From a virus, in IMG/VR virus record IMGVR_UViG_3300043036_000015, positions 1 to 37,951 of that record: 37,951 nt of DNA. The stretch is one strand, 5' to 3'. Shown piece by piece: positions 2,864 to 17,091 of the stretch; the stretch's first letter is position 1, and every line of letters starts with the position of its first letter. Made by a program: the position numbers and the translations under genes. The notes beneath the pieces were generated by a model, which was given only the letters and a program-made list of their open reading frames with translations, was not told the DNA's origin and did not search any database.

Positions 2864-4123
2864 TTAGTACCCCGATATAGCGTCATAAACCTCAAAGTCA
2901 TCTTCCTCGTAATCGGGGACAAATGAGTTGAGGGCAAGTTGTTCAATGTAAGCTAAAGCATCCACCAAGTCATCATGTACTCCCTTGGTAGGGAACATCA
3001 AGAGCTGGTCTTCAAAGTCTGACCAATCCTCATCCTCGTTGAGAGTGACTTTGCCGTGCTCCATACGCCCTTGTAAGGCCCATATCACACGGTCAGTCTT
3101 CTTCTTATTTCCATGAGTCAAAGTCTGGATGTGAGCATAGGTGTTGTACTGACGCATCATGTCCTGCAAGATGGTCAAGGCAGCATTCTTAGCTGTACCT
3201 CTCTCAATACCGATAGCCAAGGGCTGATACTCTTTGATGACCTTAAGGATACGCATACAGGTATCTTTAATGTCCCAACGTCCATGCTCAATCTTGTCTA
3301 CCCACCAATCACCATTATCCGTTACCTTGACGATAGCGATAGCTGATTCATCTAGTCTCTTTTTGTTCTGGGAACCATCTGAGATGTCTTCAAAGCCTGC
3401 CAAGTCGATAGCGATAATGTATGAACCATCACGAGGCTCTGGACCTTTCTTGATCCAATGCTCTTTAAAGATGTCAGAACCTGAGGTATCGAAGCTAGAC
3501 AGGTATTCCTGCTTGAAAGCAAAGCTACTCAAGGTACGCTTGGCTGCTTCAATCTCTTTAGGGTCAATAGTCTCGTTATCAGCGGTAGTCTTGTGCCACG
3601 CCTTCCACTCTTCATCTGATCCGTCCTTGCCTAGCTTATAGACATCGTAGAACCAATTACGACCAGAAGGAGTAGAGATAAACAAAGCCCTACCTTTCTT
3701 GTCCGACAAAGCAGCACGGATAACCTTCTCCCAAATCTCCTGCTTAATGAAAGCACATTCGTCCAGTACCACGTACACAAGGGACACACCACGAAGACTA
3801 TCGGGGTTATCAGCACCTCGAACCAGAATCTTTCTTCCGTTGACAAGGGTAATCTCTAAGTTGTTAATGTGTGAAGACTTGATCACTGGCCTACCAAGGT
3901 CATGTAACAAGTCCCAGATAATAGTTCTAGCTTGTCCAAGGGTAGGTGCTATGTACATCACAGCAGAGCCTTCAGGACAGTTTAAAGCCTCTATAAGCAG
4001 CGTTACCGCAGACAGTCTAGACTTACCACAGCGGCGACCAGCAGCTACTACCTTGAATCGGGTAGAGTCTTTAAAGACCTCTTGCTGCCAGTTAAGTAAA
4101 GCGAAGTTTAACTCAGACATCAA
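2864..4123 (-). CDS. terL: Terminase large subunit
   Basis: 419 aa. Walker A-like AAGRRCGKS, Walker B-like VVLDECAF, and C-terminal nuclease-type motifs (AIDLAG, VHDDLVDALAY). Confidence 0.88.
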   Translation of the reverse strand: MMSELNFALLNWQQEVFKDSTRFKVVAAGRRCGKSRLSAVTLLIEALNCPEGSAVMYIAPTLGQARTIIWDLLHDLGRPVIKSSHINNLEITLVNGRKILVRGADNPDSLRGVSLVYVVLDECAFIKQEIWEKVIRAALSDKKGRALFISTPSGRNWFYDVYKLGKDGSDEEWKAWHKTTADNETIDPKEIEAAKRTLSSFAFKQEYLSSFDTSGSDIFKEHWIKKGPEPRDGSYIIAIDLAGFEDISDGSQNKKRLDESAIAIVKVTDNGDWWVDKIEHGRWDIKDTCMRILKVIKEYQPLAIGIERGTAKNAALTILQDMMRQYNTYAHIQTLTHGNKKKTDRVIWALQGRMEHGKVTLNEDEDWSDFEDQLLMFPTKGVHDDLVDALAYIEQLALNSFVPDYEEDDFEVYDAISGY

Positions 4124-4484
4124 TCACATCCTCATCGGTGCTTACAGAGGGCGTATTCAAGCCGGTAATGTTGATGGAGATGTTAGGTACACCACCACCC
4201 TGCTTTGCTGCCTCGAAGGACGACACAGGTACAATCCTATCGACAATTAGCTTCCATGCAGCAGCTTGGTTCTTATGTTCATCGTTCAGAGCTGCATCGT
4301 ATATAGCCTCTAAGACCTTAGCACTCTTAGGTGAGTTAAGCATACGTAGCTTATACTCATTGATGATAGCAGCCTCACCTTTGGGACGACCTACTGATCT
4401 ACTCTCTTTGATTTCTCTAAGCTCAGACTTCTTTGGACGACCAATCTTACGCTTAGGTTCATCCTGTTGTTCTTCATTTTCCAT
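4113..4484 (-). CDS. terS: Terminase small subunit (putative)
   Basis: 123 aa and the first gene of the minus arm. It overlaps terL by 11 nt. The basic N-terminus has GRPKK / GRPKG DNA-binding-like repeats. Confidence 0.6.
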   Translation of the reverse strand: MENEEQQDEPKRKIGRPKKSELREIKESRSVGRPKGEAAIINEYKLRMLNSPKSAKVLEAIYDAALNDEHKNQAAAWKLIVDRIVPVSSFEAAKQGGGVPNISINITGLNTPSVSTDEDVIDV

Positions 4485-4544
4485 TTGTCTTTATCCTTTC
4501 TTAGGGAGACAACCTATCTACTTTTAGACCAAATGCTTATGCAC

Positions 4545-4558
4545 TTAAAGTACTTTAA
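4545..4558. promoter_or_regulatory. Perfect 14-bp palindrome TTAAAGTACTTTAA in the leader of the structural operon
   Basis: Read directly. It lies between the late promoter (4722-4750) and the terS ATG (4484). Confidence 0.55.
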
Positions 4559-4585
4559 AGGAACGTATAAGTTAAGAACTTAAAC

Positions 4586-4613
4586 ACTTATAGTATAAGT
4601 ACTTAGTGTAAGT
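4586..4613. promoter_or_regulatory. Two adjacent ACTTA..TAAGT palindromes (ACTTATAgTATAAGT, ACTTAgtgTAAGT)
   Basis: Read directly. The same core recurs at 8131-8141 downstream of another promoter. Confidence 0.5.
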
Positions 4614-4721
4614 ATTCTGTTAGTATTTAACTTATACATTCGTTGTATCAACTGTCCAGATTCCATGTTAGAGCTTAAGAGTCCATCACCTTCTTAGCAA
4701 CTATCATTACCTTATATGTAT

Positions 4722-4750
4722 ATTATACCATACTTTCTTGGATTTGTCAA
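4722..4750 (-). promoter_or_regulatory. Consensus sigma70 promoter for the structural (minus) arm
   Basis: The minus strand reads TTGACA(4750-4745)-17 nt-TATAAT(4727-4722), with TGg immediately upstream of the -10 (extended -10). The ACATATAAG tail resembles the other promoters. Confidence 0.75.
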
Positions 4751-4983
4751 GCTTTTCCTTCATTTGTTACAATTATTTACATATGTTACTTCTTAGGCAC
4801 TCCCTCCGACGCTCCGCTGGTGTCCACTATCGTTACCCTTAGACAGCAAACACTATGGTTTGTCTAGTCCTTATACTTTTTCTTGTCTATCAACTACTTA
4901 GCGCTTTAAGTGACATGGGCTAATCTGTCCTTAGTTAACAGAGTTAACCAACTAATTAATTCCTTTATTACCTTTTTTGTGAG

Positions 4984-5000
4984 CGTTGCAGGCTCCTACA
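4984..5000. repeat. Left arm of a perfect 17-bp inverted repeat (CGTTGCAGGCTCCTACA)
   Basis: Its reverse complement TGTAGGAGCCTGCAACG occurs at 5254-5270. Confidence 0.9.
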
Positions 5001-5040
5001 AAGATAAACTCATAAGCCACACCCCTCCCCCCCTACTAAG

Positions 5041-5340
5041 CAGTCACAAAGTTACTGATCAGTCACTATCTGTACACAACGGTAGCTAACTGTACGCATC
5101 TGTCGTTAACTATACCGCACAGTTATGGTGCATAATGGTCAGTCACAATGTATACTGATGAGTCACGTTGTAGACTGTTAGTGTAAGTTATAGACTGTTG
5201 AGTCACGTTGCAGACTGTTGAGTTACTTTGCAGGCAGATGGTGTGAGAGATGATGTAGGAGCCTGCAACGTATACTTACCAGCCACAACGCTACACTTAA
5301 CAGTCACAATCTAAACTACTCAGTCACAATCCAGCCACTA
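5041..5340 (+). repeat. Iteron-like array with an AGTCAC core repeated at about 20-bp phasing
   Basis: AGTCAC starts at 5042, 5061, 5141, 5161, 5201, 5302 and 5322. Variants AGTTAC/AGCCAC start at 5050, 5221, 5281 and 5333. Five consecutive degenerate 20-bp units span 5141-5240, and 5161-5180 matches 5201-5220 at 18/20. Confidence 0.85.
5254..5270. repeat. Right arm of the 17-bp inverted repeat
   Basis: Exact reverse complement of 4984-5000, with 253 bp between the arms. Confidence 0.9.
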
Positions 5341-5357
5341 CATTCACAGCTTGGAAG

Positions 5358-5428
5358 TTATCCACAGGTTGTTAAAGCACTGCCGAGTTATCCACAGCAC
5401 AGCAACATCCATGCCAGAGTTATCCACA
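5358..5428 (+). promoter_or_regulatory. Three perfect DnaA boxes (TTATCCACA) in direct orientation
   Basis: AGTTATCCACAG occurs three times. The 9-mers are at 5358-5366, 5388-5396 and 5420-5428 and match the E. coli-type high-affinity DnaA box consensus. Confidence 0.8.
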
Positions 5429-5457
5429 GGTTATCAGTCTTATATAAGACCTGAGAC

Positions 5458-5488
5458 TGTGGACAAGTACCACTACTGGTGTGGACAA
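5458..5488 (-). promoter_or_regulatory. Two inverted DnaA-box-like sites (TTGTCCACA, 8/9 match)
   Basis: TGTGGACAA occurs at 5458-5466 and 5480-5488, facing the three direct boxes. Confidence 0.6.
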
Positions 5489-5562
5489 CATTTGCCAAGG
5501 GGTAGGGTAGGGCAAGGGTAGATCGCGCCTCTACGGGCCTTTAAATCGATTTGATCGAAAGA

Positions 5563-5580
5563 TGTAACAAAGTGTAACAA
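5563..5580 (+). promoter_or_regulatory. Direct repeat TGTAACAA-N2-TGTAACAA upstream of the early promoter
   Basis: Read directly. It ends 15 bp upstream of the -35. A near-identical TGTTACAA pair sits upstream of the 8054 promoter. Confidence 0.45.
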
Positions 5581-5595
5581 ACAGGCTCAAAGGTG

Positions 5596-5623
5596 TTGAC
5601 ATTCACATCTGACGTGGTACACT
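5596..5623 (+). promoter_or_regulatory. Early sigma70 promoter
   Basis: TTGACA(5596-5601)-16 nt-TACACT(5618-5623) with an upstream TGg. It lies about 50 nt upstream of the first plus-arm gene. Confidence 0.7.
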
Positions 5624-5671
5624 ACATTCATGGAGTCGGGAAAGGCCTGACACCACAACTAAGGAACCATC

Positions 5672-5893
5672 ATGAAATTCACTCAATCATTTGACATTTG
5701 GGCTGTACCCTCTGCACTGCTCAAGCATGTGCAGCCGGGTCAATGGGTCTATGCTGGCACTAAGGACAATAAGGGCAGGTTCCTTGGCGTCAAGAAGTCA
5801 GGAACCATTGTCGTGGCTTGGCACGGTAACACCAAAGCACGGGCTGATAAGGCCTCTTACATCAAAACATTGCGTGCATACGCTAAAGGTTAA
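5672..5893 (+). CDS. Early protein, basic, unknown function
   Basis: 73-aa ORF with an AAGGA SD 7 nt upstream. It is the first gene after the promoter. Confidence 0.65.
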   Translation: MKFTQSFDIWAVPSALLKHVQPGQWVYAGTKDNKGRFLGVKKSGTIVVAWHGNTKARADKASYIKTLRAYAKG

Positions 5894-5896
5894 ACC

Positions 5897-5986
5897 ATGA
5901 AACATGATATTCAGGAAATCATCATTACAATCGCCTGTCTCGCTGTCTTTGCCCTTTGGGGTGTTTTGTTGGCCTTGGGAGTCTGA
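5897..5986 (+). CDS. Small hydrophobic peptide (29 aa, one predicted TM segment)
   Basis: Hand-translated: MKHDIQEIIITIACLAVFALWGVLLALGV. It fills the gap between neighbouring genes exactly. Confidence 0.4.
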   Translation: MKHDIQEIIITIACLAVFALWGVLLALGV

Positions 5987-5988
5987 CC

Positions 5989-6159
5989 ATGAATCACATC
6001 TCTAGATCATTGCACAAAACAGCTTCATGGGTGATTGTGAACAAAGCCACCAATTACCCTGTGTTTGAGACTTTCAACGAAAACACAGCAAAGGCTGTCA
6101 ATCAAAGGCTTTATAAGGCTGTACCCATCTTGGAATGGTTGCAGAGTCTAAACAAATGA
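5989..6159 (+). CDS. Early protein, unknown function (56 aa)
   Basis: I prefer the internal ATG of track ORF 5956..6159 because it sits 2 nt after the upstream stop. Confidence 0.55.
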   Translation: MNHISRSLHKTASWVIVNKATNYPVFETFNENTAKAVNQRLYKAVPILEWLQSLNK

Positions 6160-6258
6160 TTGCAGCCTGATGGGTTCTTATGCTAGAATCCATTGGAGTG
6201 CAATCCTACCGCACTAAATCCCGCCTGTGATGTACAGGTAACAACTGAGATTTACACC

Positions 6259-6582
6259 ATGAAAACTACTGTTGATTTTAACGATTTCCGTCACGCCTTC
6301 AACGCTATTCGCCCTGACAACTTTAGCCGTGAAGGTCTTGAACAGTTGTTCGATTACTTCGCGTCTTACGAACAGGACACAGGCGAAGAAATCGAGTTGG
6401 ACGTGATCGCCATTTGCTGCGAGTATAGCGAACAATCATGGCAATCTATTGCCTCTGATTATGATGTTGACGTTGATGGCTTGGATGATACCGAAGCAAA
6501 GCAACACGTTATGAACTATTTGTGTGATAACACCTCGGTCATTGGTGAGACTTCCGATGGTTTCGTCTATCAGTGCTTTTAA
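6259..6582 (+). CDS. Acidic early protein, unknown function
   Basis: Track ORF 6193..6582. I prefer the ATG at 6259 (MKTTVDFNDF...). The protein is rich in D/E. Confidence 0.6.
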   Translation: MKTTVDFNDFRHAFNAIRPDNFSREGLEQLFDYFASYEQDTGEEIELDVIAICCEYSEQSWQSIASDYDVDVDGLDDTEAKQHVMNYLCDNTSVIGETSDGFVYQCF

Positions 6583-6592
6583 GGGGTTAACC

Positions 6593-6928
6593 ATGTACGA
6601 AACTATTCACACAGATACAGCCGCAGGTTTTGACATTGTTTTTAGTGTCACCCATGAAGACTTTGCGCCTGATTGGGATTTTGAGAATGAAGAAGACACA
6701 CAGGACACTTTGCGTCGCATCGAGAATGGCGACTTAGTTTGGTTTGTCGCACGGGTACAGGCCTTTAAAAATGGGGTTCTTTTGGGCACTGACTATCTTG
6801 GTGGATGTTGTTATGATTCATATATGCAATTTGTGGAGGCTTCGGACTACTATGCGGATATGATGGAGAACGCAGTAAGCGAAGCCCGTCAAACAATCGC
6901 CAAATTAACCGAAGAGGTGACAGCATGA
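6593..6928 (+). CDS. Acidic early protein, unknown function
   Basis: Track ORF 6524..6928. I prefer the ATG at 6593 (MYETIHTD...), which has an AAGGGG SD. Confidence 0.6.
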   Translation: MYETIHTDTAAGFDIVFSVTHEDFAPDWDFENEEDTQDTLRRIENGDLVWFVARVQAFKNGVLLGTDYLGGCCYDSYMQFVEASDYYADMMENAVSEARQTIAKLTEEVTA

Positions 6929-7116
6929 CCAACACCCCAATGGCCTCAAATGGCCTTATAACGTACCGTTACCGGGGCCGCTATGGTTTCATATACATTG
7001 GTGCAAGAACTGACACCGAGGCATTGTCAGAGGCGCAGCGCAGCACTGACGATAAAGTCACGGCTGACAGACTTGAACGTCACAACGGTCAACGCTTTGT
7101 AGGGGTCTTATCATGA
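6925..7116 (+). CDS. Early protein, unknown function
   Basis: 63-aa ORF with an ATGA overlap to the upstream gene. Confidence 0.55.
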   Translation: MTNTPMASNGLITYRYRGRYGFIYIGARTDTEALSEAQRSTDDKVTADRLERHNGQRFVGVLS

Positions 7117-7316
7117 GTAGATACGAAGTCCAATTCAAAACCAGCGGCATTGTGGCCTTCAGTGCCACAGAACGGGCCATCTGTCAGCATTGGTACGAGT
7201 GCAACAACTACGGGCCAGAGATGGCCTATTGTGACCCCGCAACGGGTGAGATTGTCCCTGACAAGTGGGTCAGGGGTGAATGTCTTGAATTGTTCATAAT
7301 TAAGAGGGTGAAATGA
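7113..7316 (+). CDS. Early protein, unknown function
   Basis: 67-aa ORF with an ATGA overlap to the upstream gene. Confidence 0.55.
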   Translation: MSRYEVQFKTSGIVAFSATERAICQHWYECNNYGPEMAYCDPATGEIVPDKWVRGECLELFIIKRVK

Positions 7317-7414
7317 TGTATACTTGGCCCTTCCCTGCCTTCCCTAATCCATTGGACAAGGGCACAAAAGTGCCTAAATTTAACCCTTCAAACCATGAGG
7401 ATGCGCCATTGTGA
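7313..7414 (+). CDS. Small early peptide (33 aa)
   Basis: Hand-translated: MMYTWPFPAFPNPLDKGTKVPKFNPSNHEDAPL. It has an ATGA overlap upstream, a GTGA overlap downstream and a GAGGGTG SD. Confidence 0.4.
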   Translation: MMYTWPFPAFPNPLDKGTKVPKFNPSNHEDAPL

Positions 7415-7632
7415 CCAAGATTAAACAATTCGTATACAAATTAAGGGGCTGTGAATGGTACGGGCTTTGTGAGGTTCAATCCATTGAGTCCCTGCCCTTG
7501 ATCGTTCGATGCACTGACCTGTACCTTGAAGGATACAGGGACGATAACCCTCCAGACATGAGGGACATTGTAGACTATCAGTTAGTCCTTGACATTGAAG
7601 ACATGGTAAGAATCGAGGCCGAGAATGCCTAA
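7411..7632 (+). CDS. Early protein, unknown function (GTG start)
   Basis: 73-aa ORF coupled to the upstream peptide. Confidence 0.5.
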   Translation: MTKIKQFVYKLRGCEWYGLCEVQSIESLPLIVRCTDLYLEGYRDDNPPDMRDIVDYQLVLDIEDMVRIEAENA

Positions 7633-7811
7633 GCCTAATCATTGGATTGTCTTGTGCATGGTCGCATGTGCCTACATTTTAGCGGGGTACTATGATTCGA
7701 TGGCTTATTGATCTAATCCTACCATCTAGGAAGCCTTGCCAAGGCCTCTAATCGGGCCTACAAGGGCCTCAAATCAATCAACTAAGGGCTACATAGCCAA
7801 AGGAGTGAATA

Positions 7812-8057
7812 ATGCACTGTATCGTGTGTGACAAGAATCTGAAAGATCATGAGGCTGTTCGCCGCCATGCCTTAACCAATGAATTCTTAGACATCTGTGA
7901 TGGCTGTTTGAAGGAAATACCGGGATTACCTACAAAGTCCCCTGCTGGCATGGTGTCAGATGCTGACCCTTTCGAGGAGACAGACGACACTGTGGATGTG
8001 GAGGCTATCAGTGGGTCTGTTACAAACTGTTACAACTTAAACGATGACGACTATTGA
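7812..8057 (+). CDS. Zinc-ribbon-like protein with an acidic C-terminal tail
   Basis: 81 aa with CxxC...CxxC spacing (CIVC...CDGC) and a D/E-rich tail. A strong AAAGGAG SD lies upstream. Confidence 0.65.
   Translation: MHCIVCDKNLKDHEAVRRHALTNEFLDICDGCLKEIPGLPTKSPAGMVSDADPFEETDDTVDVEAISGSVTNCYNLNDDDY
8018..8035 (+). promoter_or_regulatory. Direct repeat TGTTACAA-N2-TGTTACAA upstream of the 8054 promoter
   Basis: Read directly. It has the same spacing and a similar distance to the -35 as the repeat at 5563-5580. It lies within the 3' end of CDS 7812..8057. Confidence 0.4.
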
Positions 8058-8081
8058 CAGTTGGACAACCAGTGATATAAT
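8054..8081 (+). promoter_or_regulatory. Consensus sigma70 promoter (middle/replication genes)
   Basis: TTGACA-16 nt-TATAAT with an upstream TGa, followed by TTCTATATAG (compare TTACATATAG at 13991). Confidence 0.75.
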
Positions 8082-8130
8082 TTCTATATAGACACTAAGA
8101 CATTTCATAGATGTTAACCTACTAACAGAT

Positions 8131-8141
8131 ACTTAGTAAGT
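8131..8141. promoter_or_regulatory. Palindrome ACTTAgTAAGT in the leader downstream of the 8054 promoter
   Basis: It has the same half-sites as the palindromes at 4586-4613. Confidence 0.4.
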
Positions 8142-8217
8142 TATACATTGTATGTCTTTACTCTATAGTCCTTTAAAGTCTATATATGAGGTGTTGAAAT
8201 GAACGGAGTGAATGGAT

Positions 8218-8388
8218 ATGAGTGAGTTAGCTATTGACATGATGAACACTGAGGATGATGTCTTACAGTTTGAATGTTGGTATCATTCCGTGATGGATGA
8301 TGTGGCTAGTCTTATCCGTGCCAATGGCTACGATAAGATCATGTTTGACATACAGTGTGCAGTGGAACGGATGGAGGACAAGGTATGA
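8218..8388 (+). CDS. Small acidic protein (56 aa), unknown function
   Basis: Hand-translated: MSELAIDMMNTEDDVLQFECWYHSVMDDVASLIRANGYDKIMFDIQCAVERMEDKV. A GGAG SD lies upstream. Confidence 0.5.
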   Translation: MSELAIDMMNTEDDVLQFECWYHSVMDDVASLIRANGYDKIMFDIQCAVERMEDKV

Positions 8389-8457
8389 TTGTCTCTCTGT
8401 TTGTGGGTGTCTTAACATTTATCAAGGTGGTGCTGAAATGATGAACGGAGTGAATGT

Positions 8458-8736
8458 ATGAGTAAAGATAATCCTTATAGCTTAGTTGTCAATGTAGAGA
8501 ATGCTACCTGTGTTGTCGAGTTCGGTGTTACCGTTGGTGAGATCGACTGGGAGAACATTGAAGTGTTCTACAACAAGAAATTTAAGCGTGGCGCATATCA
8601 GAAATATGTTGCTGAGGAATGGACACAGGTTAATGACCTGATTCACGATAAGACTTGGCATTCTATTGAATCTCAGATCAAGGCACAATGGAGTGATGTA
8701 GAGGAACAGCAGAGGGGATATGATGAGCACTATTGA
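8458..8736 (+). CDS. Hypothetical protein
   Basis: 92-aa ORF. Its GGAGTGAATG leader is the same as that of the 8218 gene. Confidence 0.6.
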   Translation: MSKDNPYSLVVNVENATCVVEFGVTVGEIDWENIEVFYNKKFKRGAYQKYVAEEWTQVNDLIHDKTWHSIESQIKAQWSDVEEQQRGYDEHY

Positions 8737-9067
8737 CATGAAAGACGAAGCATTGGACAAGGCGCTGGAGGCGTTGGAAAAGATTTCCAGAACTCAATAC
8801 CACATTGAAACCCCGCCAATTGAAAGTCTTGAGGAGCAGATGCGGCGCATTGCTGACAAAGCCATCACCGCTTGTGAGCAAGCCCTTGCAGCACCTGTGC
8901 AGGAGCCTGTAAAACACTTAATGGTTGCTTACGAACTAGCTCAAAAAGAACTTGCCCGTTTAGTCAAAGAAAACTTTGGACAAATGCCTAGGAATGATAA
9001 ATGGGCCGACAGTGTTCTCGACTTGCGCAATAAACTTGAATCTCAAAAAACTGAAAGTAAAAAATGA
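8720..9067 (+). CDS. Hypothetical coiled-coil protein
   Basis: 115-aa ORF containing an APVQEPV segment that is also present in the next gene. Confidence 0.6.
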   Translation: MMSTIDMKDEALDKALEALEKISRTQYHIETPPIESLEEQMRRIADKAITACEQALAAPVQEPVKHLMVAYELAQKELARLVKENFGQMPRNDKWADSVLDLRNKLESQKTESKK

Positions 9068-9507
9068 AGGCTTATTGCAAAAACTGCCAATTAATACAAC
9101 CTGCCAGCTTTAGACTCGAAAAGGATGCCATAACAGGATCACATTACGAAGACTTGTGCTGCGATAGTTGCCACTTTATTGCCGCAACAATTCAAGAACG
9201 TGAGGCTCCTGCGCAACCCGCACCTGTGCAGGAGCCTGTGGCGTATTTGGTAACAGGGCCATATGAAAAGCGTTTATTTCCAGACCTTAATTCTGCCAAC
9301 GCATATTGCAGTGGGCTAAACAGAGGTTGGGGTAAAGAGGTTTACACAGTTAGCTCTCTCTACACCACCCCACCCACAGCACAGCGGCAATGGGTTGGGC
9401 TGACGGATGAGGAGATTGCTACGGCTTGGCCTTATGAATTAGGACTATTAGAGAAACAATTTGCCTTTAACTTAGAAGTCAAATTAAAGGAGAAGAACAA
9501 TGGCTAG
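9064..9507 (+). CDS. Hypothetical Cys-rich protein
   Basis: 147-aa ORF with an ATGA overlap upstream and an N-terminal CxxC...CxxC pattern. Confidence 0.6.
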   Translation: MKAYCKNCQLIQPASFRLEKDAITGSHYEDLCCDSCHFIAATIQEREAPAQPAPVQEPVAYLVTGPYEKRLFPDLNSANAYCSGLNRGWGKEVYTVSSLYTTPPTAQRQWVGLTDEEIATAWPYELGLLEKQFAFNLEVKLKEKNNG

Positions 9508-11104
9508 TAAATTCCTTCGTCATATCGCCTGTGAGCACTGTGGAAGCACTGACGCTAACAGCCTGTATGATGACGGCCATACACACTGCTTTGCCTGTAA
9601 CACTACAGAGCACGAGCATGAAGCTGAAGACAGACACGCCACGAGGCACAACATGGCACGAAAGATCGTGACAACAATGGATATTAGTACACCGGGCCTT
9701 ATGAAATCAATCCCTGATCGAGGAATCAGTCAGGCAACCTGTGAGAAGTATGGAGTAACCACAGATGGAGACAAACAATATTATCCTTACACTGACGGAG
9801 ACGGAGTTAGAACGGCTGTTAAACAACGCACTGTTTCTACAAAGAAATTCTCCATCTCAGGAGACTTCACAGGAGCAACACTATTCGGTCAGTCTCTCTT
9901 TCACGCTGGAGGAAAAGCTATCACCATCACAGAAGGAGAGCTGGACGCTCTCGCAGCTTTCCAGATGCAGGGGTCTATATACCCTACAGTGAGTATCCGT
10001 AATGGTGCTCAGGCTGCTTTGAAGGACTGTAAAGCACAGTACGAATGGATCAACAGCTTTGACTCTGTGGTCATCTGCTTTGATGGTGATGAGCCGGGTA
10101 AGAAGGCTGCCAAGGAAGTGGCTGAGTTGTTCGGTAACAAAGCCAAGATCATGCAGTACAAGGATGGCTACAAGGATGCTTGTGAGTACCTGATTGCAGG
10201 GGCAGGTAAGGAGTTTGTTAACGCATGGTGGAGAGCTAGTCCATATGTGCCTGACGGTATTGTTAACGCTGCTGACCTCTGGGAAGAAATCTCCAAACCA
10301 GAGCCGGTGGCAGAGGCACAGTACCCTTGGAAGGGTTTGAATAAGCTCTTGTACGGTATCCGACCTGCTGAGTTGATTACGGTTACCGCAGGCAGCGGCT
10401 TGGGTAAGAGTCAGTTCCTTCGAGAGATTCTGTTTAATCTGTTGAAGACAACTAGCTGGAATATCGGCGGGTTGTTCTTGGAGGAATCTACTCGTAAGAC
10501 AGCACGAAGTATCATGTCGCTACATGCTAACAAGCTGTTGCATCTGCCTGATACACCTACAACTGAACAGGAATTGAAGGAGGCTTTTGATGCTACTCTT
10601 GGCTCTAATCGTGTGTTTCTGTTTGACCACTTTGGTTCTTCTGACGTGGAAAACATTGCCAACCGTGTACGTTACATGGCTAAGGCGTGTGATTGTCGTG
10701 CTGTGTTTCTCGACCACCTATCTATCGTTATCTCTGGTCAAGATACCGGAGATGAGCGAAAGGCGATTGATGCTATGATGACCAAGCTACGGACACTGGT
10801 ACAGGAGCTGAATATCACTTTGATCTGTGTGAGTCACTTGAAACGACCACAGGGAAACCAAGGCCATGAGGATGGTGGTAGTGTGTCTCTGTCTCAGTTG
10901 CGAGGCTCAGGTGCTATCGCACAGTTGAGCGATGCAGTGATCACGCTGGAGCGTAACAGCATGGCTGAGAACGAGAATGAGCGACACTTGACCAAGATTG
11001 CAGTGGCAAAGAATCGATACAATGGCGAGACTGGCCCTGCTTGTAAGTTACAATACAATGGCTATACAGGACGTATGGTTGAAGTTGAGGAGGAAATACT
11101 ATGA
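9500..11104 (+). CDS. Bifunctional DNA primase-helicase (T7 gp4-like)
   Basis: 534 aa. N-terminal zinc ribbon CEHCGS...CFACN, TOPRIM motifs (ITEGELDALA, CFDGDEPG), Walker A GSGLGKS and Walker B VFLDHLS. Confidence 0.92.
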   Translation: MASKFLRHIACEHCGSTDANSLYDDGHTHCFACNTTEHEHEAEDRHATRHNMARKIVTTMDISTPGLMKSIPDRGISQATCEKYGVTTDGDKQYYPYTDGDGVRTAVKQRTVSTKKFSISGDFTGATLFGQSLFHAGGKAITITEGELDALAAFQMQGSIYPTVSIRNGAQAALKDCKAQYEWINSFDSVVICFDGDEPGKKAAKEVAELFGNKAKIMQYKDGYKDACEYLIAGAGKEFVNAWWRASPYVPDGIVNAADLWEEISKPEPVAEAQYPWKGLNKLLYGIRPAELITVTAGSGLGKSQFLREILFNLLKTTSWNIGGLFLEESTRKTARSIMSLHANKLLHLPDTPTTEQELKEAFDATLGSNRVFLFDHFGSSDVENIANRVRYMAKACDCRAVFLDHLSIVISGQDTGDERKAIDAMMTKLRTLVQELNITLICVSHLKRPQGNQGHEDGGSVSLSQLRGSGAIAQLSDAVITLERNSMAENENERHLTKIAVAKNRYNGETGPACKLQYNGYTGRMVEVEEEIL

Positions 11105-11268
11105 CAGTATGGCATGGAGGGAAAGGCTCAAGCAGTCGCCCAAGGCAGGTGAGTAACGAAGACTATGCAAACCGATGGGATGCTATCTTTCAGCGAGATA
11201 AGCCAAAGGAAGAACCTATTGGCAAGGCTTTGGAAGAGGAACCTTTGAAGGAAGATGAGAATGATTAG
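11101..11268 (+). CDS. Small conserved-looking protein (55 aa)
   Basis: Hand-translated: MTVWHGGKGSSSRPRQVSNEDYANRWDAIFQRDKPKEE... It has an ATGA overlap with the helicase stop. Confidence 0.5.
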   Translation: MTVWHGGKGSSSRPRQVSNEDYANRWDAIFQRDKPKEEPIGKALEEEPLKEDEND

Positions 11269-11413
11269 TATTGAACATCTAATCGTAGGAGCCACCGGAG
11301 TAGGTTACTTGGTGGTAGGTGTGCTACAATGGAGCAAGGGAGAAATCTCTAACGGGATGATCTGGACGGGCTATGCCTTTGCTCAGATTGGGTTGTGGCT
11401 TAATATCAAATGA
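11261..11413 (+). CDS. Small membrane protein (50 aa)
   Basis: Hand-translated: MISIEHLIVGATGVGYLVVGVLQWSKGEISNGMIWTGYAFAQIGLWLNIK, with two hydrophobic segments. Confidence 0.45.
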   Translation: MISIEHLIVGATGVGYLVVGVLQWSKGEISNGMIWTGYAFAQIGLWLNIK

Positions 11414-11424
11414 GGAGGAAGATC

Positions 11425-11646
11425 ATGCCTGACATTAGTATGTGTAACGATTATTCCTGTCCTAAGTTTGACAAGTGCTACCGAGCGCAGGCTAAACCTA
11501 GTGAGTACCGACAAGCATACTTTGCTAGTTCACCTCGTAGTGTAGACGGTTGCGAATACTTTAGCCCTTTGGAAAAAACAAATGAGAATAGTTCTCGACA
11601 TCGAAACAAACCTAGCACACGACAAGATTCACCTAGTCGTGACTAA
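11425..11646 (+). CDS. Cys-rich small protein, unknown function
   Basis: Track ORF 11410..11646. I prefer the ATG at 11425 with a GAGGAGG SD. It overlaps the DNA polymerase start by 65 nt in another frame. Confidence 0.5.
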   Translation: MPDISMCNDYSCPKFDKCYRAQAKPSEYRQAYFASSPRSVDGCEYFSPLEKTNENSSRHRNKPSTRQDSPSRD

Positions 11647-12832
11647 AGACATTGACACTGGAGAAGTACGCACATGGAAAGCAGCAAGCAACCTGCCGGA
11701 GTTTTTAAAGGACGCATCGTTGATAGTCATGCACAACGGCATAAGTTTCGATGCACCAGTATTGAATCGCTTATGGAAGACGAAGATTCGTTCGAGTCAA
11801 GTGTACGATACATTGATAGTAAGCAGGCTTCTCGACCCGAGCCGCGAGAACGGTCACAGCCTCGAAGCATGGGGACAAACTCTAGGCTTTCACAAGATTG
11901 ACTATGCTGCTGTATGGCGGTGGATGATGGACAGGAAGGAAGAGTATGCAGGAGAGTGTTTTGACAGCCCTATTGCTGGTCTTCTTGAGCATTACTGTGT
12001 TAGGGACGTTGAAGTTACTTGTAAGCTGTATCATCGGCTTAACAGTGACTTGGCTGAGAAGCAGTTTAGCCAAGAGAGTGTCGAACTCGAACACAGAGTA
12101 GCAGCAATCATATCAAAGCAAGAACGAAATGGATTCAAACTTGACCAAATCTACGCAACCTGTTTACTTACTGACATCAAGTCAAAAGTGGCAGGAATAT
12201 ATGAGCGAATGCAACAGAGATGGCCTCCTGTCACTCTTGAGCGATTCTCTGACAAAACAGGAAAGAGACTCAAGGACAGCGTGGTTACTTTCAACCCCGG
12301 AAGTAGACAGCAAATTGGGGAACGACTGAAGGAACTCGGATGGAAGCCCAAGGAGTTCACAGAGACAGGTATTCCAAAGGTAGATGAAACTATCTTAGCT
12401 AACATCAAGATTCCAGAAGCTCAGGTTATTGCTGAGTATCTGATGCTACAGAAACGTATCAGTCAGATTGAGTCTTGGATGGAAGCTGTAGGCAAGGATG
12501 GTAGGGTGCATGGTAAGGTCATTACTAACGGTGCTGTTACAGGCCGAATGACCCACAGTAGCCCTAACATGGCTCAGATCCCCAATGCAGGTTCCATCTA
12601 TGGGCCTGAGTGCCGGGAATGCTGGTCAGTTGAGGATGGTAATGTGTTGGTAGGTTGCGATGCTTCAGGTCTGGAGCTTCGTATGTTGGCTCACTATATG
12701 AAGGATGAAGATTATGTCAGAACTGTCTGTGAGGGATCATCTAAAGATGGAACGGATGTTCATACAGTTAACCAAAGAGCAGCAGGACTCTCTTCTAGAG
12801 ATAATGCAAAGACTTTTATCTACGCCTTCCTT
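11582..12832 (+). CDS. Family A DNA polymerase (T7 gp5-like), exon 1
   Basis: 417 codons. Exo I motif LDIETN sits near the N-terminus. The exon ends ...SRDNAKTFIYAFL, in the middle of motif B (O-helix), and a stop codon follows immediately. Confidence 0.9.
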
Positions 12833-12943
12833 TGACTAAATAGAGGCTTTACCTAGGAATAGGTATCGAAAATCCGGTGAACTCAGGGGAAGACCAGAAC
12901 GGTTAATCCTGAGCCAAGCAAGTAAGCTTATTGTAAGTCATTT

Positions 12944-12952
12944 ATGCTATAA
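12944..12952 (+). promoter_or_regulatory. Extended -10 element (TGcTATAAT) inside the intron, upstream of the endonuclease ORF
   Basis: Read directly. There is no good -35. An AAGGAG SD follows at 12969-12974. Confidence 0.4.
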
Positions 12953-12980
12953 TATAGGCTCCGTAACATAAGGAGTAGAT

Positions 12981-13424
12981 ATGACAGCATTAACACAAAC
13001 AGAATTGCAGTTTCGCCATCGTAGGACACTGAAAGGAACTATCTCTAACAAACTAATGTCAGCCAAGAAACGAGCAAGAAACGATAATTTATCTTTCGAG
13101 CTTGATAACGCTTACGTAACTTCTCTCTGGGAACAACAAGAAGGTAAGTGTGCAAAAACAGGTGTTGAGTTAGGACGTATTGGAGATAAGTGGTTATCCC
13201 CTTCCTTGGATCGCATTGATCCTTTACAAGGATACATAAAAGGGAATGTTCAGTGGACTTGTTGGAGATATAATGATGCTAAGAGTAACATGAGTGATGA
13301 TTCGTTTACTTCCATGTGTCTAGCAATCGCTGCTACTTATTTTAAGCAACTTGAAGGTGCAACGACTATCCCGAAAGGGAGTACATCCAAGCGGATGGAA
13401 GCGCCGGACAACCAGTTAGGTTGA
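12981..13424 (+). CDS. Intron-encoded HNH-type (His-Me finger) homing endonuclease (putative)
   Basis: 147-aa ORF with SLDRIDPLQGYIKGNVQWTCWRYNDAK, which resembles the xDRID..GY..xNvq....N..K pattern of many phage proteins annotated as HNH endonucleases. It has a strong SD, and its 3' end overlaps the ribozyme core. Confidence 0.65.
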   Translation: MTALTQTELQFRHRRTLKGTISNKLMSAKKRARNDNLSFELDNAYVTSLWEQQEGKCAKTGVELGRIGDKWLSPSLDRIDPLQGYIKGNVQWTCWRYNDAKSNMSDDSFTSMCLAIAATYFKQLEGATTIPKGSTSKRMEAPDNQLG

Positions 13425-13504
13425 TGATATAGTCTGCTCTACATAGGAATATGTAGCAGTTCGTAAGAACGGACAGAGCCTAGCGAACTCTGTTGAACAT
13501 TAGG

Positions 13505-13966
13505 TATGGTGCGGGAGATGCAAAGATTGGTAGTATTGTGGGGGGCAGTGCAAGAGATGGAACAAAGCTCAAAGCCAAGTTCCTCGCGCAAACACCGTCC
13601 CTCGCTAAACTTCTTGAACGAGTCGGAAAGCAAGCAGCAAAAGGATGGGTTCCCGGACTTGATGGGAGGCGTATTTGGGTTCGATCCGAGCATGCGGCTC
13701 TCAATTCGCTCCTCCAAGGGGCCGGAGCAATCGTGATGAAGAAGGCTCTCGTGATCTTTGATGACAAACGCAAGGCTAACAAATGGCCTGTGAAGTATGT
13801 CGCCAATGTCCACGATGAGGCCCAGCTAGAATGCCCTAAAGATATTGCTGAGGAGGTCGGTAAAGCCTTCAGACAAAGTATCATTGAGGCAGGGGAAGCT
13901 TACAGTTTACGGTGTCCACTAGATGGGGAGTACAAGATTGGTAGAAACTGGAGAGAAACACATTGA
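13505..13966 (+). CDS. Family A DNA polymerase, exon 2
   Basis: It begins YGAGDAKIGSIVGG..., which completes motif B, and contains motif C (NVHDEAQLE). The spliced product is 570 aa. Confidence 0.88.
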   Translation, partial: YGAGDAKIGSIVGGSARDGTKLKAKFLAQTPSLAKLLERVGKQAAKGWVPGLDGRRIWVRSEHAALNSLLQGAGAIVMKKALVIFDDKRKANKWPVKYVANVHDEAQLECPKDIAEEVGKAFRQSIIEAGEAYSLRCPLDGEYKIGRNWRETH

Positions 13967-13990
13967 CATTGCTTAAAAGCATGGTATAAT
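13963..13990 (+). promoter_or_regulatory. Consensus sigma70 promoter driving the tRNA and downstream genes
   Basis: TTGACA(13963-13968)-16 nt-TATAAT(13985-13990) with an upstream TGg. The -35 overlaps the polymerase stop codon. Confidence 0.75.
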
Positions 13991-14001
13991 TTACATATAG
14001 A

Positions 14002-14086
14002 GCGAGTGTGGTGGAATTGGTATACACAGCAGACTTAAAATCTGCCGCCGAAAGGATTGAGGGATCGTGACCCTCCACTCGCACCA
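14002..14086 (+). tRNA. tRNA-Leu (anticodon UAA), type II with long variable arm, encoded CCA
   Basis: Hand-folded. Acceptor GCGAGTG/CACTCGC; 3-bp D stem with GG in the loop; anticodon stem GCAGA/TCTGC with loop CTTAAAA; 13-nt variable region; T stem GAGGG/CCCTC; discriminator A followed by CCA. Confidence 0.85.
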
Positions 14087-14290
14087 GATATAGGGATCAA
14101 GAACTAGACGAGGTATATTGGATAGCTTCTGATATAGCCAAGTATGCAGTCCCTATAGGTAGTCTATCCTATGCCAAGCCTTAGCAGGCTCCCTTGTGGA
14201 ATTGAGGATAGCGTACTGCTACGTTAGCAACGTAATGCTAAGACGGAGAACGTAACCGTCACTTTTGAAACTTAAATAGGAAATTAAATC

Positions 14291-14707
14291 ATGGATAACA
14301 AACCAGTCAAAATCGCAGGTCAACTCTTCTGGGCTAACTGGATGAAGGAATTCAACACCAAGTTCAATGAAGACAACACCAAGTATGAGTGTACAATCGG
14401 TATGCTCTCTGACAAGGCTTGTGAAGCTCTGAAGGAGCAAGGTATTGTGATCAAGAACAAGGATACAATGGGTAACTACATTGTCGGTAAGTCCAAGTTC
14501 CTGTTCGAGCCAATGGACGCTGAAGGCAACGCTATTGACATCAGCAAGATCGGTAACGGCACTAAGGTGACAGCTTTGGTAGGTTCTTATCGCCACAAGA
14601 TGTCAGCTAAATTCGGTGCTGCTCCATCCATCAGCAAGATTATCGTGACTGACTTGGTTGTCTACGGTGCTGATGCTGAAGACGACAACGATGACGACAT
14701 CCTGTAA
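14291..14707 (+). CDS. Single-stranded DNA-binding protein (gp2.5-type, acidic C-terminal tail)
   Basis: 138 aa ending in the acidic tail ADAEDDNDDDIL. It sits in the replication module next to the exonuclease. Confidence 0.6.
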   Translation: MDNKPVKIAGQLFWANWMKEFNTKFNEDNTKYECTIGMLSDKACEALKEQGIVIKNKDTMGNYIVGKSKFLFEPMDAEGNAIDISKIGNGTKVTALVGSYRHKMSAKFGAAPSISKIIVTDLVVYGADAEDDNDDDIL

Positions 14708-15449
14708 CAAGGAACCTAAGATTGCATTAGTCGATGCTGACTTTCTTGTCTACCGTATTGGATTCAGTACGGAGGATGAGCCAGTTGGTATCGCTAAGGC
14801 AAGGCTAACGGAGTGGTTAGAAGACTTTATCTATGTGAATCTCAAGGCTGATGAATACAAAGCTTGGATCACAGGTAAATCTAACTACCGTTATGACATT
14901 GCCAAGACAGTCCCTTATAAAGGCAACCGTAAGGATGTACTCAGACCTAAGCACTACGAAGCCCTACGGGAGCATCTAGTCAAGCGTCACGGTGCAGTAG
15001 TTACAGTTGGTGAAGAAGCTGATGATACCGTAGCCATTGAGTCAACAACACTGCTTGATCGCTGTTGGATCGTCCATGTCGATAAAGACTTGGATCAGCT
15101 TATGGGGTGGCATTACAATCCTGTGAAAGATGAAAGGTACTATGTTGATCAGTTTGAGGGTTTGAAGAACTTCTACACTCAGCTTTTAACTGGTGATCGT
15201 ATTGATAACATCGAAGGCATCCGAGGTATTGGGCCTAAGAAAGCTGAAAAAGCCTTAAAGGACTGTAAGAATGAACAAGATTTATATCAATCTGTTTGTG
15301 GTATGTATTCAGAACACGAAATGGAGCACAGCCGAATTGTTGAAAATGGACAGCTTCTGTGGCTCAGACGTTATGAAGGGGAACTATGGCTACCGCCAAG
15401 CAAGTTGCAATCAAGTACGGATTCCGTAGCGGCCTCGAAGAAAGAGTAG
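14691..15449 (+). CDS. 5'-3' exonuclease / flap endonuclease (T7 gp6-like function)
   Basis: LVDADFLVYR, the YKGNRK motif and the H3TH motif GDRIDNIEGIRGIGPKKAEKAL. The start is uncertain (the track start is 14658). Confidence 0.85.
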   Translation: MTTSCNKEPKIALVDADFLVYRIGFSTEDEPVGIAKARLTEWLEDFIYVNLKADEYKAWITGKSNYRYDIAKTVPYKGNRKDVLRPKHYEALREHLVKRHGAVVTVGEEADDTVAIESTTLLDRCWIVHVDKDLDQLMGWHYNPVKDERYYVDQFEGLKNFYTQLLTGDRIDNIEGIRGIGPKKAEKALKDCKNEQDLYQSVCGMYSEHEMEHSRIVENGQLLWLRRYEGELWLPPSKLQSSTDSVAASKKE

Positions 15450-15787
15450 CTGAACAACTGGATCAGTTAGGGATTGAGTACACATACGAGAAGGTCAAGC
15501 TTAAGTACATCAAGCCTGCCTCTCAACATGTGTACACACCTGACTTTGTTCTAGCCAACGGTATCATTGTGGAGACTAAAGGACGCTTTCTAGCTCCTGA
15601 TCGCCAGAAGCATATCTTGGTTAAGAGACATAATCCAGACTTGGACATTAGATTTGTGTTTTCAAACTCTAATGCCCGGATCAGCAAGGCTTCTAAGACG
15701 ACCTATGCCATGTGGTGTCGAAAGCATGGTTATAAGTTTGCAGACAAGACAATACCTGAGGAGTGGTTAAATGAACGTAAAGACTGA
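15386..15787 (+). CDS. Endonuclease I / Holliday-junction resolvase (T7 gp3-like)
   Basis: FRSGLEERVAEQL...YTPDFVL.NGIIVETKG...DIRFVFSNS...KHGYKFADKTIPEEW closely parallels T7 gp3 as I recall it. It overlaps the exonuclease gene by 64 nt. Confidence 0.9.
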   Translation: MATAKQVAIKYGFRSGLEERVAEQLDQLGIEYTYEKVKLKYIKPASQHVYTPDFVLANGIIVETKGRFLAPDRQKHILVKRHNPDLDIRFVFSNSNARISKASKTTYAMWCRKHGYKFADKTIPEEWLNERKD

Positions 15788-15908
15788 GAAACAAACGATA
15801 ATCACTTACACGTTCACCAAAGGAGAACGTCACGCTCTTATGGATATGGGGCTGTGGGGTTTTATTAATGCTCGATTGTTGAGCAATGAAAGGATTGAAG
15901 TTGAGTAA
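15771..15908 (+). CDS. Possible small protein (45 aa)
   Basis: Hand-translated: MNVKTEKQTIITYTFTKGERHALMDMGLWGFINARLLSNERIEVE. It overlaps both neighbours. Confidence 0.3.
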   Translation: MNVKTEKQTIITYTFTKGERHALMDMGLWGFINARLLSNERIEVE

Positions 15909-16533
15909 TGTGCGTACAATCTGGTCAACCCCTGAAGGTGAAGATCTAATCGCTTACATGGCTCGTGTGTCAGCACCTGAGAATCAGGACAAGAAAGACA
16001 CTGGTCCTAAGCTTGTGAAGTATCTGATCAAGCATAAGCACTGGAGTCCCTTGGAGATGGTTAATGTCTGCATGGAGATTGAGACTACCCGCGACATTGC
16101 CCGACAGATTCTGCGACACCGTAGCTTCAGCTTCCAAGAGTTCTCTCAACGGTATGCTGTAGCTTTTGATTGGAAGGTATCTGAAGTGCGTATGCAGGAT
16201 GATAAGAACCGTCAGAACAGCTTGGAGACTGATGACTTGTACTTGAATAACTGGTGGAATGCTGCTCAAGTTCGTGTACAATCGGAAGCTGAGTTGATGT
16301 ATCGTTCAGCTCTGGACAAAGGTATTGCTAAGGAGCAAGCCCGTAAGCTACTGCCTGAAGGCCTGACTATGAGTCGCATGTACATGAATGGCACACTGCG
16401 TAGTTGGCTTCACTATGTGGATATTCGCTGTGATGCGGCTACGCAGAAGGAACACCGAGAGGTGGCTTTGAAGTGCCGTGATGAGTTAACTAAACTGTTT
16501 CCTAATGTGATGGAGGTTATGAATGCTAATTGA
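15886..16533 (+). CDS. thyX: Flavin-dependent thymidylate synthase
   Basis: It carries the ThyX signature RHRSFSFQEFSQRY, and its 215-aa size is typical. Confidence 0.9.
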   Translation: MKGLKLSNVRTIWSTPEGEDLIAYMARVSAPENQDKKDTGPKLVKYLIKHKHWSPLEMVNVCMEIETTRDIARQILRHRSFSFQEFSQRYAVAFDWKVSEVRMQDDKNRQNSLETDDLYLNNWWNAAQVRVQSEAELMYRSALDKGIAKEQARKLLPEGLTMSRMYMNGTLRSWLHYVDIRCDAATQKEHREVALKCRDELTKLFPNVMEVMNAN

Positions 16534-16831: not shown

Positions 16832-17091
16832 ATGATGACATCATGCAAACATATGGCTTTACCTACATCGACTGTAACGGTAAGGTATACAAGAAAGAGA
16901 TCAGTACTCCCGGAGCTTCATGGCACGAGTGCATGGATGACTATGTGAAGTTCTTGGAGACTATTTTTGGTTATCCTATTAAGCATCAAGTGCGACTGGA
17001 AGAGCCGATGTATCTGAAAGGAATGTACGAGAGCTACCCTGACTACCTTGATTCTTGGACTGGTGAGTACTTTACTAAAGAGGCCGAATAA
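16828..17091 (+). CDS. Hypothetical protein
   Basis: 87-aa ORF with an ATGA overlap upstream. Confidence 0.55.
   Translation: MNDDIMQTYGFTYIDCNGKVYKKEISTPGASWHECMDDYVKFLETIFGYPIKHQVRLEEPMYLKGMYESYPDYLDSWTGEYFTKEAE

Follow-up and report, generated by a model that had tools for sequence, protein, structure and literature searches.

Phased 20-bp iterons beside a DnaA-box cluster form a recurrent module, and a candidate replication origin, in freshwater phages

The iteron origins of theta plasmids and phage-plasmids, such as RK2 oriV, P1 oriR, F oriS and pSC101, consist of asymmetric direct repeats of about 20 bp placed on one strand two helical turns apart, with DnaA boxes on one side and easily melted AT-rich DNA on the other. 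In the lambda origin, four O-protein iterons act as phased repeats that nucleate a complex next to an AT-rich region; these iterons, located inside gene O, are 19-bp dyads to which O dimers bind. To our knowledge, origins are not known for almost all uncultured phages, nor for most lytic phages that have a T7-type replisome and no RNA polymerase of their own. Here, we analysed the IMG/VR virus record IMGVR_UViG_3300043036_000015 as one stretch of 37,951 nucleotides (the window), in which an array of 20-bp repeats with the core AGTCAC (positions 5041-5340) and an adjoining DnaA-box cluster lie in a 1.19-kb gap free of open reading frames (ORFs; 4485-5671), the only large gap of this kind. The locus resembles the theta-plasmid origins in repeat length, strand and spacing, as well as in having DnaA boxes on one side, with AT-rich DNA as a candidate unwinding region on the other, but its period is 20 bp instead of 21-23, it has about 15 units instead of three to nine, and no Rep/TrfA/RepA-type gene is present beside the repeats or among the ORFs scanned. 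With the lambda origin it shares phased repeats near AT-rich DNA, whereas its units are weakly dyadic, non-coding and located beside DnaA boxes, and no O-like gene was found.

Our results show a genuine array that departs strongly from randomness and is under selection. Seven exact AGTCAC cores lie in 5041-5340 (starts at 5042, 5061, 5141, 5161, 5201, 5302 and 5322), all on the plus strand and none on the minus strand, together with four plus-strand cores that have one mismatch (5050, 5221, 5281 and 5333), and nine of these 11 share a single 20-bp register (position modulo 20 = 1-2). An initial annotation made from the letters alone had given the same numbers of exact and one-mismatch cores, the starts of nine of them and their 20-bp phasing, all of which hold, and its claim that CAGTCACAA is present four times was likewise borne out (5041, 5140, 5301 and 5321). 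These 300 bp, only 0.8% of the genome, contain seven of its 16 plus-strand AGTCAC copies, as well as five of the six CAGTCAC copies in the 38-kb window, and Tandem Repeats Finder reports a period of 20 with 4.0 copies and a score of 88 at 5154-5233. When 300-bp regions were simulated 20,000 times under a first-order Markov model, counting sites at up to one mismatch, the mean was 1.6 sites and the maximum 8, compared to 11 observed, and for in-phase sites (two-phase bin) the mean was 0.96 and the maximum 4, compared to nine observed. No other 300-bp window on either strand of the whole genome approaches the array in these counts. A weight matrix trained solely on units from other loci assigned 20.1 bits to the site at 5061, 20.0 to 5141, 17.2 to 5302, 13.9 to 5322 and 12.3 to 5042, and detected no further site above 10 bits elsewhere in the 38-kb genome.

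Written in rows of 20, positions 5041-5340 comprise about 15 units on one strand. The left iteron pair (5041-5080, plus strand) contains the cores at 5042 and 5061 and is followed by three degenerate in-register units (5081-5140, plus strand) that kept the 3' half (AACTGTAC / AACTATAC) and lost the AGTCAC core, and then by five head-to-tail 20-bp units (5141-5240, plus strand), one of type A (AGTCACAATGTATACTGATG) and four of type B (AGTCACGTTGyAGACTGTTr and variants). The five head-to-tail 20-mers, and the identity at 18 of 20 positions between the second and fourth of them (5161 and 5201), had been described in the initial annotation and were confirmed. The right iteron set (5281-5348, plus strand), with AGCCACA at 5281, AGTCACA at 5302 and 5322 and ATTCACA at 5342, runs on in a register of about 20 bp into the first DnaA box (9-mer starts at 5300, 5320, 5340 and 5358) and is also conserved in the related loci L185, L186, L184 and L202/L212. 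Pooling 53 units from other loci gave the 20-bp consensus AGTCA[C/G]AAAnT[A/G]nACnGTT[C], in which AGTCA occupies positions 1-5, C or G position 6, AAA 7-9, T 11, A 14, C 15 and G-T-T-C 17-20. The unit is therefore asymmetric and has two parts, of which the 5' half, AGTCA[C/G]AAA, is the strong one and the 3' half, T[A/G]nAC-n-GTT[C], the weaker, and its most invariant positions are G-T-C (53/53, 53/53 and 52/53). Since its dyad symmetry is weak, with a match at just 2.1 of four positions, a reading of the unit as a dimer operator like that of lambda O was dropped. A possible resemblance of the unit to the 20-bp iterons of RSF1010 oriV (ACTGTCACG) was set aside.

The 20-bp iterons represent a widespread, previously undescribed family in freshwater phages that travels with the DnaA-box cluster. 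Relatives were fetched through the 73-amino-acid (aa) early protein, DNA patterns and the 123-aa protein p123, both encoded next to the gap, and comprised the loci L044/L188, L184-L187, L202, L204, L205, L211-L213, L217, L226 and L233. All of them present a C-tract and then AGTCAC units at 20-bp spacing, from three to about 15 units, and their alignments show that cores and register are kept while spacers and copy number drift. Loss of phasing in related genomes had been named in the initial annotation as an observation that would count against the array, but among 75 consecutive AGTCA spacings from the 15 loci, 54 fall on a multiple of 20 ± 1, compared to an expectation of 15%. No plasmid DNA similar to the module was found. 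A search for four AGTCA spaced 20 bp apart, run on 185,579 bacterial genomes, returned at least 120 loci; among the matches listed all were plain tandem repeats in unrelated taxa, and they are uninformative on the host chromosome.

The DnaA boxes that had been noted beside the array are real, with five matches at 5358-5488, beginning 18 bp past the last iteron-like core. Three copies of TTATCCACA (5358, 5388 and 5420, plus strand) and two of TTGTCCACA (5458 and 5480, minus strand) converge on a 14-bp AT-rich palindrome, GTCTTATATAAGAC (5437-5450). The combination of array and DnaA cluster is seen again in unrelated phages of Comamonadaceae hosts, and DnaA boxes adjoin iterons in DC31, L007, L008, L185, L186 and L202 as well. 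Limnohabitans phage DC31 is a cultured, long-tailed phage of 76 kb, unrelated to the window phage, and a 930-bp gap in its co-directional early-gene block holds eight units exactly 20 bp apart, followed by AT-rich TATATAAGC repeats and by three forward and two reverse DnaA boxes. This is the sole such array in its 76 kb, and the module lies about 8 kb from the genes for the putative small terminase (terS), the large terminase (terL) and the portal. Positions 5388-5502 of the window are 82.6% identical to DC31 over 115 nt, and the DC31-like contigs L007, L008 and L015 have the module as in DC31, so that the module is found again in unrelated phages away from terminase genes. Related DnaA clusters are also present in L004-L008 and, as a decayed copy of the DnaA part, in Curvibacter phage P26059A. 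The published description of DC31 makes no mention of the array/DnaA module (PMC12195039).

About 15 phased iterons for a sequence-specific double-stranded DNA-binding protein, together with the DnaA cluster, may thus constitute a phage replication origin without an initiator gene of its own. We favour this reading, tentatively and somewhat short of confidence, because the same module is present in unrelated freshwater phages. As in iteron origins, at least three direct repeats of 17-22 bp stand in one orientation about two helical turns apart, and DnaA boxes adjoin them. The layout between the divergent promoters is AT-rich unstable DNA, then iterons, then DnaA boxes, and this order is that of RK2 oriV. 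Iterons and the first DnaA box share a helical register in the window, L185, L186, L184 and L202/L212. The phage also has a full T7-type replisome, for which no origin-binding protein is annotated. In the mechanism that we propose, a protein would coat one face of the array while host DnaA would fill the five boxes, and the combined complex would open AT-rich DNA, either the 14-bp palindrome between the boxes or the unstable stretch at 4560-4980. The T7-type primase-helicase of the phage could then load onto the single strand so exposed with no help from DnaB or DnaC, since the T7 primase-helicase needs no loader. The iteron binder probably comes from the host or is a protein that the recipient phages already share, because no Rep gene travels with the module; as one unit serves many lineages, the simplest binder would be a host protein or a shared protein such as the gp4-type primase-helicase.

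Candidate unwinding DNA is present on both sides of the array. The AT-rich non-coding DNA at 4540-4980 holds the divergent promoters, and GC content is 0.35 in 4501-5000. Duplex stability in 40-bp windows falls to between -41 and -44 kcal/mol at 4560-4640, 4700-4740 and 4920-4980, and the minima in 4560-4980 are at or past the value that delimits the least stable 1% of the genome (-44.5 kcal/mol). This unstable DNA is located 60-480 bp from the array, and the AT palindrome is 14 bp long between the converging boxes. No 13-mer-type repeats were found in the window; DC31-like phages have the TATATAAGC tandem repeats. Cumulative GC skew reaches its minimum at 5000-5500, but the minimum reflects the switch in gene orientation at this site and the skew of DC31 follows transcription without a turn at its array, and GC skew was rejected as independent evidence for an origin. 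The origin proposed in the initial annotation is partly supported, by the phased iterons beside DnaA boxes, their conserved phasing and the module in DC31-like phages, while GC skew is uninformative and the two parts of the module are separable.

This separability is one of several results that weigh against an origin. The array is found alone in L018, whereas L004, L005 and L006, which share one DC31-like locus with it, have DnaA boxes and TATATAAGC repeats alone, and arrays without nearby DnaA boxes are present in L213, L019, L020 and L056, so neither part is indispensable alone. No cognate Rep gene is linked to the iterons: Pfam and PHROGs gave no Rep, RepA_N, TrfA or O-like match in the plus-strand arm (5672-22692, except the ORFs at 18451-21113) and the three leftward genes, and jackhmmer searches with every small early ORF found no protein common to all array-bearing loci. 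The earlier remark that no initiator is obvious among the encoded proteins was right, and the weight matrix revealed no extra iteron copy elsewhere in the genome that would mark an autoregulated gene. Further, the array is located upstream of a putative terS operon, and in L063, L201, L225 and L213 AGTCAC arrays with 20-bp spacing lie 120-190 bp upstream of terS. T7 has phased repeats in an ORF-free region ahead of its early genes, and physical ends are found in such a region in phages of the T7 supergroup (PMC6775973). In the T5 injection-stop (iss) region, conserved DnaA boxes plus repeats in non-coding DNA were taken for an injection-stop signal and not for an origin (bioRxiv 10.1101/866236).

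Taken together, the missing initiator, the separable parts, the terS-proximal arrays and the T7 array leave some weight on a role in packaging or at the genome end, the alternative already raised in the initial annotation, although we consider it doubtful. The array would then be a set of phased small-terminase sites, similar to cosB or pac, or an array of short terminal repeats of the T7 type; with comparable doubt, such a terminal array may serve to process concatemers or may act on the DNA that enters the cell first, with DnaA boxes that anchor or protect the entering end as proposed for T5. The window array occupies the only large ORF-free gap, upstream of p123, TerL and the portal gene and directly ahead of the early promoter. 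In the distant relative L213 it starts 165 bp from a p123-like gene, and the 580 bp that follow contain no DnaA box; in L063, L225, L201 and, about 760 bp away, L222, arrays are upstream of terS-terL(-portal). Those terS-proximal arrays may nonetheless be unrelated look-alikes, since the second pattern scan that retrieved them itself required AGTCAC at 20-bp spacing. They resemble the repeated sites upstream of terS in cosB and pac (lambda R1-R3, SPP1 pacL), whereas the window array is 557 bp from the putative terS, beyond a strong promoter, and abuts DnaA boxes. The T7 left end offers another likeness, with 12 one-stranded ACCTAAAG repeats (nt 175-340) between the 160-bp terminal repeat and the promoters A1-A3 for host RNA polymerase, and a leftward promoter near the array as in the window. 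However, the T7 repeats are mostly 13 bp apart, have another motif, lack DnaA boxes and adjoin a known terminal repeat, the function of the T7 array being itself unsettled. Terminal repeats of T7-supergroup podophages without an RNA polymerase are located in an ORF-free region between two gene modules (PMC6775973). The T5 iss region is likewise long non-coding DNA with conserved DnaA boxes and many direct and inverted repeats, but its repeat spacing is irregular and its DnaA boxes are paired 3 bp apart in large inverted repeats, and the DnaA role there is itself a hypothesis (bioRxiv 10.1101/866236). The DC31-like module tells against packaging, as it lies about 8 kb from terS/terL; the corresponding distance to p123 is 557 bp for the window array and 165 bp for that of L213. 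In addition, one unit would have to serve four unrelated small-terminase families (p123, phrog_51, phrog_83 and phrog_3900); it does not co-vary with them, and p123 and phrog_51 have no profile similarity. The absence of the array in the DC31-like L004-L006 and its range from three to about 15 units in close relatives would be odd for an essential signal, and p123 is not demonstrably a small terminase. The packaging alternative nevertheless gained real support from the place of the window array upstream of the putative terS operon, the terS-proximal arrays and the T7 repeats. Contig ends of the relatives did not help to locate physical ends, since they scatter or fall within repeats.

The remaining explanations do without both an origin and a packaging signal, or without a dedicated iteron binder. 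The phased sites could serve a nucleoid or regulatory protein of the host, or a regulator of the phage, as an architectural platform that shapes the divergent early/late promoter region, or the array could be a decoy that titrates a host factor as phage DNA accumulates, with DnaA boxes that titrate or exploit DnaA for ends unconnected with phage replication; both versions appear quite unlikely to us. A host protein fits the presence of the unit in lineages without a common candidate binder, array and DnaA cluster are each dispensable, like accessory elements, and the array is located between divergent promoters in the window and between paralogous small helix-turn-helix (HTH) genes in the L216 family. 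However, it is 250-550 bp from the early promoter and at least 290 bp from the leftward, late one, while a different motif, TGTAACAAA, is present at both. The arrays of L020 and L056 lie between convergent gene blocks, where there is no promoter that they could control, and this speaks against a function as promoter operators; no IHF, Fis, Lrp, LexA, Pho-box or matS site was seen in the unit by eye against consensus sequences. Very unlikely, in our view, is a landing pad for a T7-type primase, whose recognition sites would be exposed on the strand displaced by rightward transcription, with no need for a double-stranded DNA binder. T7 gp4 recognises 5'-GTC-3', and the unit varies least at G-T-C; all cores are on the plus strand, which would be non-template for transcription from the promoter-like site at 4744-4773, and a gp4-type primase-helicase with a zinc ribbon is encoded in the window, in L044 and in DC31. 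Yet the strict 20-bp spacing and the conservation of A5, A7-A9, T11, A14, C15 and G17 would not be expected of primase sites, no such primase-helicase gene turned up in L019, L020 and L056, whose loci are partial, and the T7 primary origin has a single primase site and not an array. Hardly credible is the view that the units are low-affinity DnaA boxes that extend a DnaA oligomer, like the weak sites of oriC. TCAGTCACA matches TTATNCACA at seven of nine positions and is presumably one base off the E. coli R5M site (TCATTCACA), and the right units, still in register, merge gradually into the boxes (AGTCACA, ATTCACA, ATCCACA). Nevertheless, conservation does not follow the positions read by DnaA: the invariant G and T of the unit fall on box positions 4-5, of which the first must be T in a DnaA box and the second may be any base; DC31-type units (AGTCAGAAA) have no CACA, and the spacing is 20 bp, compared to 11 bp in the weak-site arrays of oriC.

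Returning to the origin that we tentatively favour, a more specific and unlikely version of it would make the module a portable, initiator-less origin cassette that is swapped among unrelated podophages and siphophages of freshwater Comamonadaceae. Its trans-acting factors, available beforehand in every recipient, would be host DnaA and either an unrecognised host protein or the primase-helicase, and the iterons would be phased loading and priming sites and not Rep sites; if true, this would be an origin design not described so far. Whatever its role, this conserved cis element is sharply delimited, and its function is directly testable because it also occurs in DC31, a phage in culture together with its host, Limnohabitans DCL3. 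A true origin without a phage initiator would mean that lytic phages can borrow host DnaA and swap origins between lineages, while a genome-end mark would add another, independent example to the phased repeats of T7, which were described in 1983 and are still unexplained.

A comparison of gene presence and absence in DC31-like loci with and without the array yielded no clean candidate for the iteron binder. The first early gene (5672-5893, plus strand) encodes the 73-aa protein of family phrog_21585, which follows the DnaA cluster in many phages and has at least 104 clusters, all unannotated; its AlphaFold model has a pLDDT (predicted local distance difference test) of 91.5 and no fold match in the PDB. 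As an iteron binder it was rejected, since it is absent from array-only loci, including L018 (with about 6 kb downstream covered), and present in the array-less L004. In a 168-kb contig the protein occurs without boxes or arrays nearby, and it tracks the boxes, though not always, and not the array. A 147-aa zinc-ribbon ORF upstream of the primase-helicase was also inconsistent, with homologues in L020 and L056 and none in L044 or DC31. The 123-aa ORF p123 (4113-4484, minus strand), a putative small terminase by gene position only, is the first gene of the leftward p123-TerL-portal operon, overlaps the TerL start and has two GRP (AT-hook-like) motifs near its N-terminus. It is not recognisable as a small terminase, given that it has no PHROG match, weak Pfam matches to DUF5681 and AT_hook, no PDB relative and no match to the phrog_51 terS profile. 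The p123 family includes more than 7,000 clusters in public metagenomes, all labelled hypothetical and on contigs of 36-39 kb, which indicates that the array-bearing podophage group is very abundant in fresh water.

The promoters of the gap are associated with a motif of their own. A leftward sigma-70 promoter (4722-4750, minus strand; TTGACA-17-TATAAT with TG, a 12/12 consensus match) heads the p123/TerL/portal operon, and 4700-4780 is conserved in relatives. An early rightward promoter, TTGACA-16-TACACT, is located at 5596-5623 (plus strand), and a promoter-like site at 4744-4773 (plus strand; TTGTCA-18-TACAAT, 10/12, by consensus match alone) would transcribe rightward across the array. Two tandem copies of TGTAACAAA, 10 bp apart (5563-5571 and 5573-5581, plus strand), stand directly upstream of the early -35 element, and their inverted partner is located at the leftward promoter (4763-4771, minus strand), within a 20-nt inverted repeat formed by 4763-4782 and 5562-5581. 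The window has five copies of TGTAACAAA, compared to 0.54 expected, three of them in the gap, and the motif is conserved in L185, L186 and L202. TGTAACAAA is probably the operator of a regulator that acts on both divergent promoters and is separate from the array.

Several other elements flank the iterons. The arms of a perfect 17-nt inverted repeat, 253 nt apart, bracket the left and central parts of the array: the left arm (CGTTGCAGGCTCCTACA; 4984-5000, plus strand) resembles the 3' half of the type-B unit and is part of a block, TTTTTTGTG...AGGCTCC.ACAA, that every relative has kept, and the right arm (5254-5270, plus strand) is its inverted copy, whereas the counterparts in L044 are direct and not inverted. 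A C-tract (CCCCTCCCCCCC; 5022-5033, plus strand) directly precedes the first iteron and has the same place in relatives, and a quadruplex-like G-rich run, GGGGTAGGGTAGGGCAAGGG (5499-5518, plus strand), closes the module, its AAGGGG part being present in all modules with a DnaA cluster. With a C-tract at the opening and a G-rich run at the close, the G-rich strand points outward on both sides.

Variants of the module were observed in other loci. The AT-rich tandem repeats of DC31-like phages are based on TATATAAG, recur every 8 or 16 bp in as many as 8-9 copies and are found directly before the DnaA boxes (7907-7980 in DC31, L001; 6665-6800, reverse strand, in L004; 3660-3740 in L005); in L004-L006 they occupy the place of the AGTCA array of other relatives. 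Directly upstream of the DC31 array (L001, 7630-7731) there are two to three copies of TTTCCAAAAACCTACTTGGGTATTTG, with related copies in L007, L008, L015 and L018, which could be promoters or sites for another protein. On a 54-kb contig (L021, 12798-12960, and L037, 1-250), more than 10 AGTCAC units at 20-bp spacing directly follow a Prim-Pol/PriCT/AAA_25 helicase gene, whose product has 636 aa and a C-terminal sequence that resembles a winged helix by eye. Origins of satellites and P4-type elements sit directly after such primase-helicase genes, and this region is probably the origin of a temperate element, which is in line with the origin reading of the window array; after the L021 array come scattered GTCAC/GTGAC copies in both orientations and then a Cro/CI-like region. 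L216 (7089-7150), as well as L208, L215 and L228, has AGTCACAAAATAGACGCTGG units between paralogous HTH genes of 100-106 aa (phrog_1725/phrog_323), with three to four paralogues per locus.

The genome itself is that of a podophage of lytic type, which encodes both a primase-helicase and a polymerase of the T7 kind. Positions 1-127 of the window are an exact copy of 37825-37951, a repeat within a gene, and reflect a circular assembly path cut at k = 127 and not a physical terminal repeat, so the true genome length is 37,824 bp. Both arms diverge from the ORF-free gap. The minus-strand arm carries the structural genes and ends with the portal gene (706-2691), TerL (2864-4123) and p123. The plus-strand arm (5672-22692) has small early genes and a T7-type replication set, including the gp4-type primase-helicase (9500-11104, plus strand), 32% identical to its DC31 counterpart, a split family-A polymerase, an exonuclease, endonuclease I, ThyX, MazG, PhoH and a ClpP-like protease. 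Proteins encoded at 18451-21110 are 48-54% identical to both ribonucleotide-reductase subunits of DC31, and no phage RNA polymerase was found in the window genome.

Some minor features were noted outside the gap. The family-A polymerase gene is split (11582-12835, 12981-13424 and 13493-13966) by an endonuclease VII/HNH-like ORF, and 13350-13468 shares 85% identity with unrelated phages of Escherichia, Ralstonia and Aeromonas at the DNA level; the sequence suggests that the interruption is a mobile intron or homing element. A tRNA-Leu gene (anticodon TAA; 14002-14086) lies between the polymerase and exonuclease genes and is up to 94% identical to Pseudomonas phage tRNA-Leu. At 35548-35795, a coding tandem repeat with periods of 21 and 126 nt and about 11.6 copies is located within a 745-aa ORF (33700-35937, minus strand).

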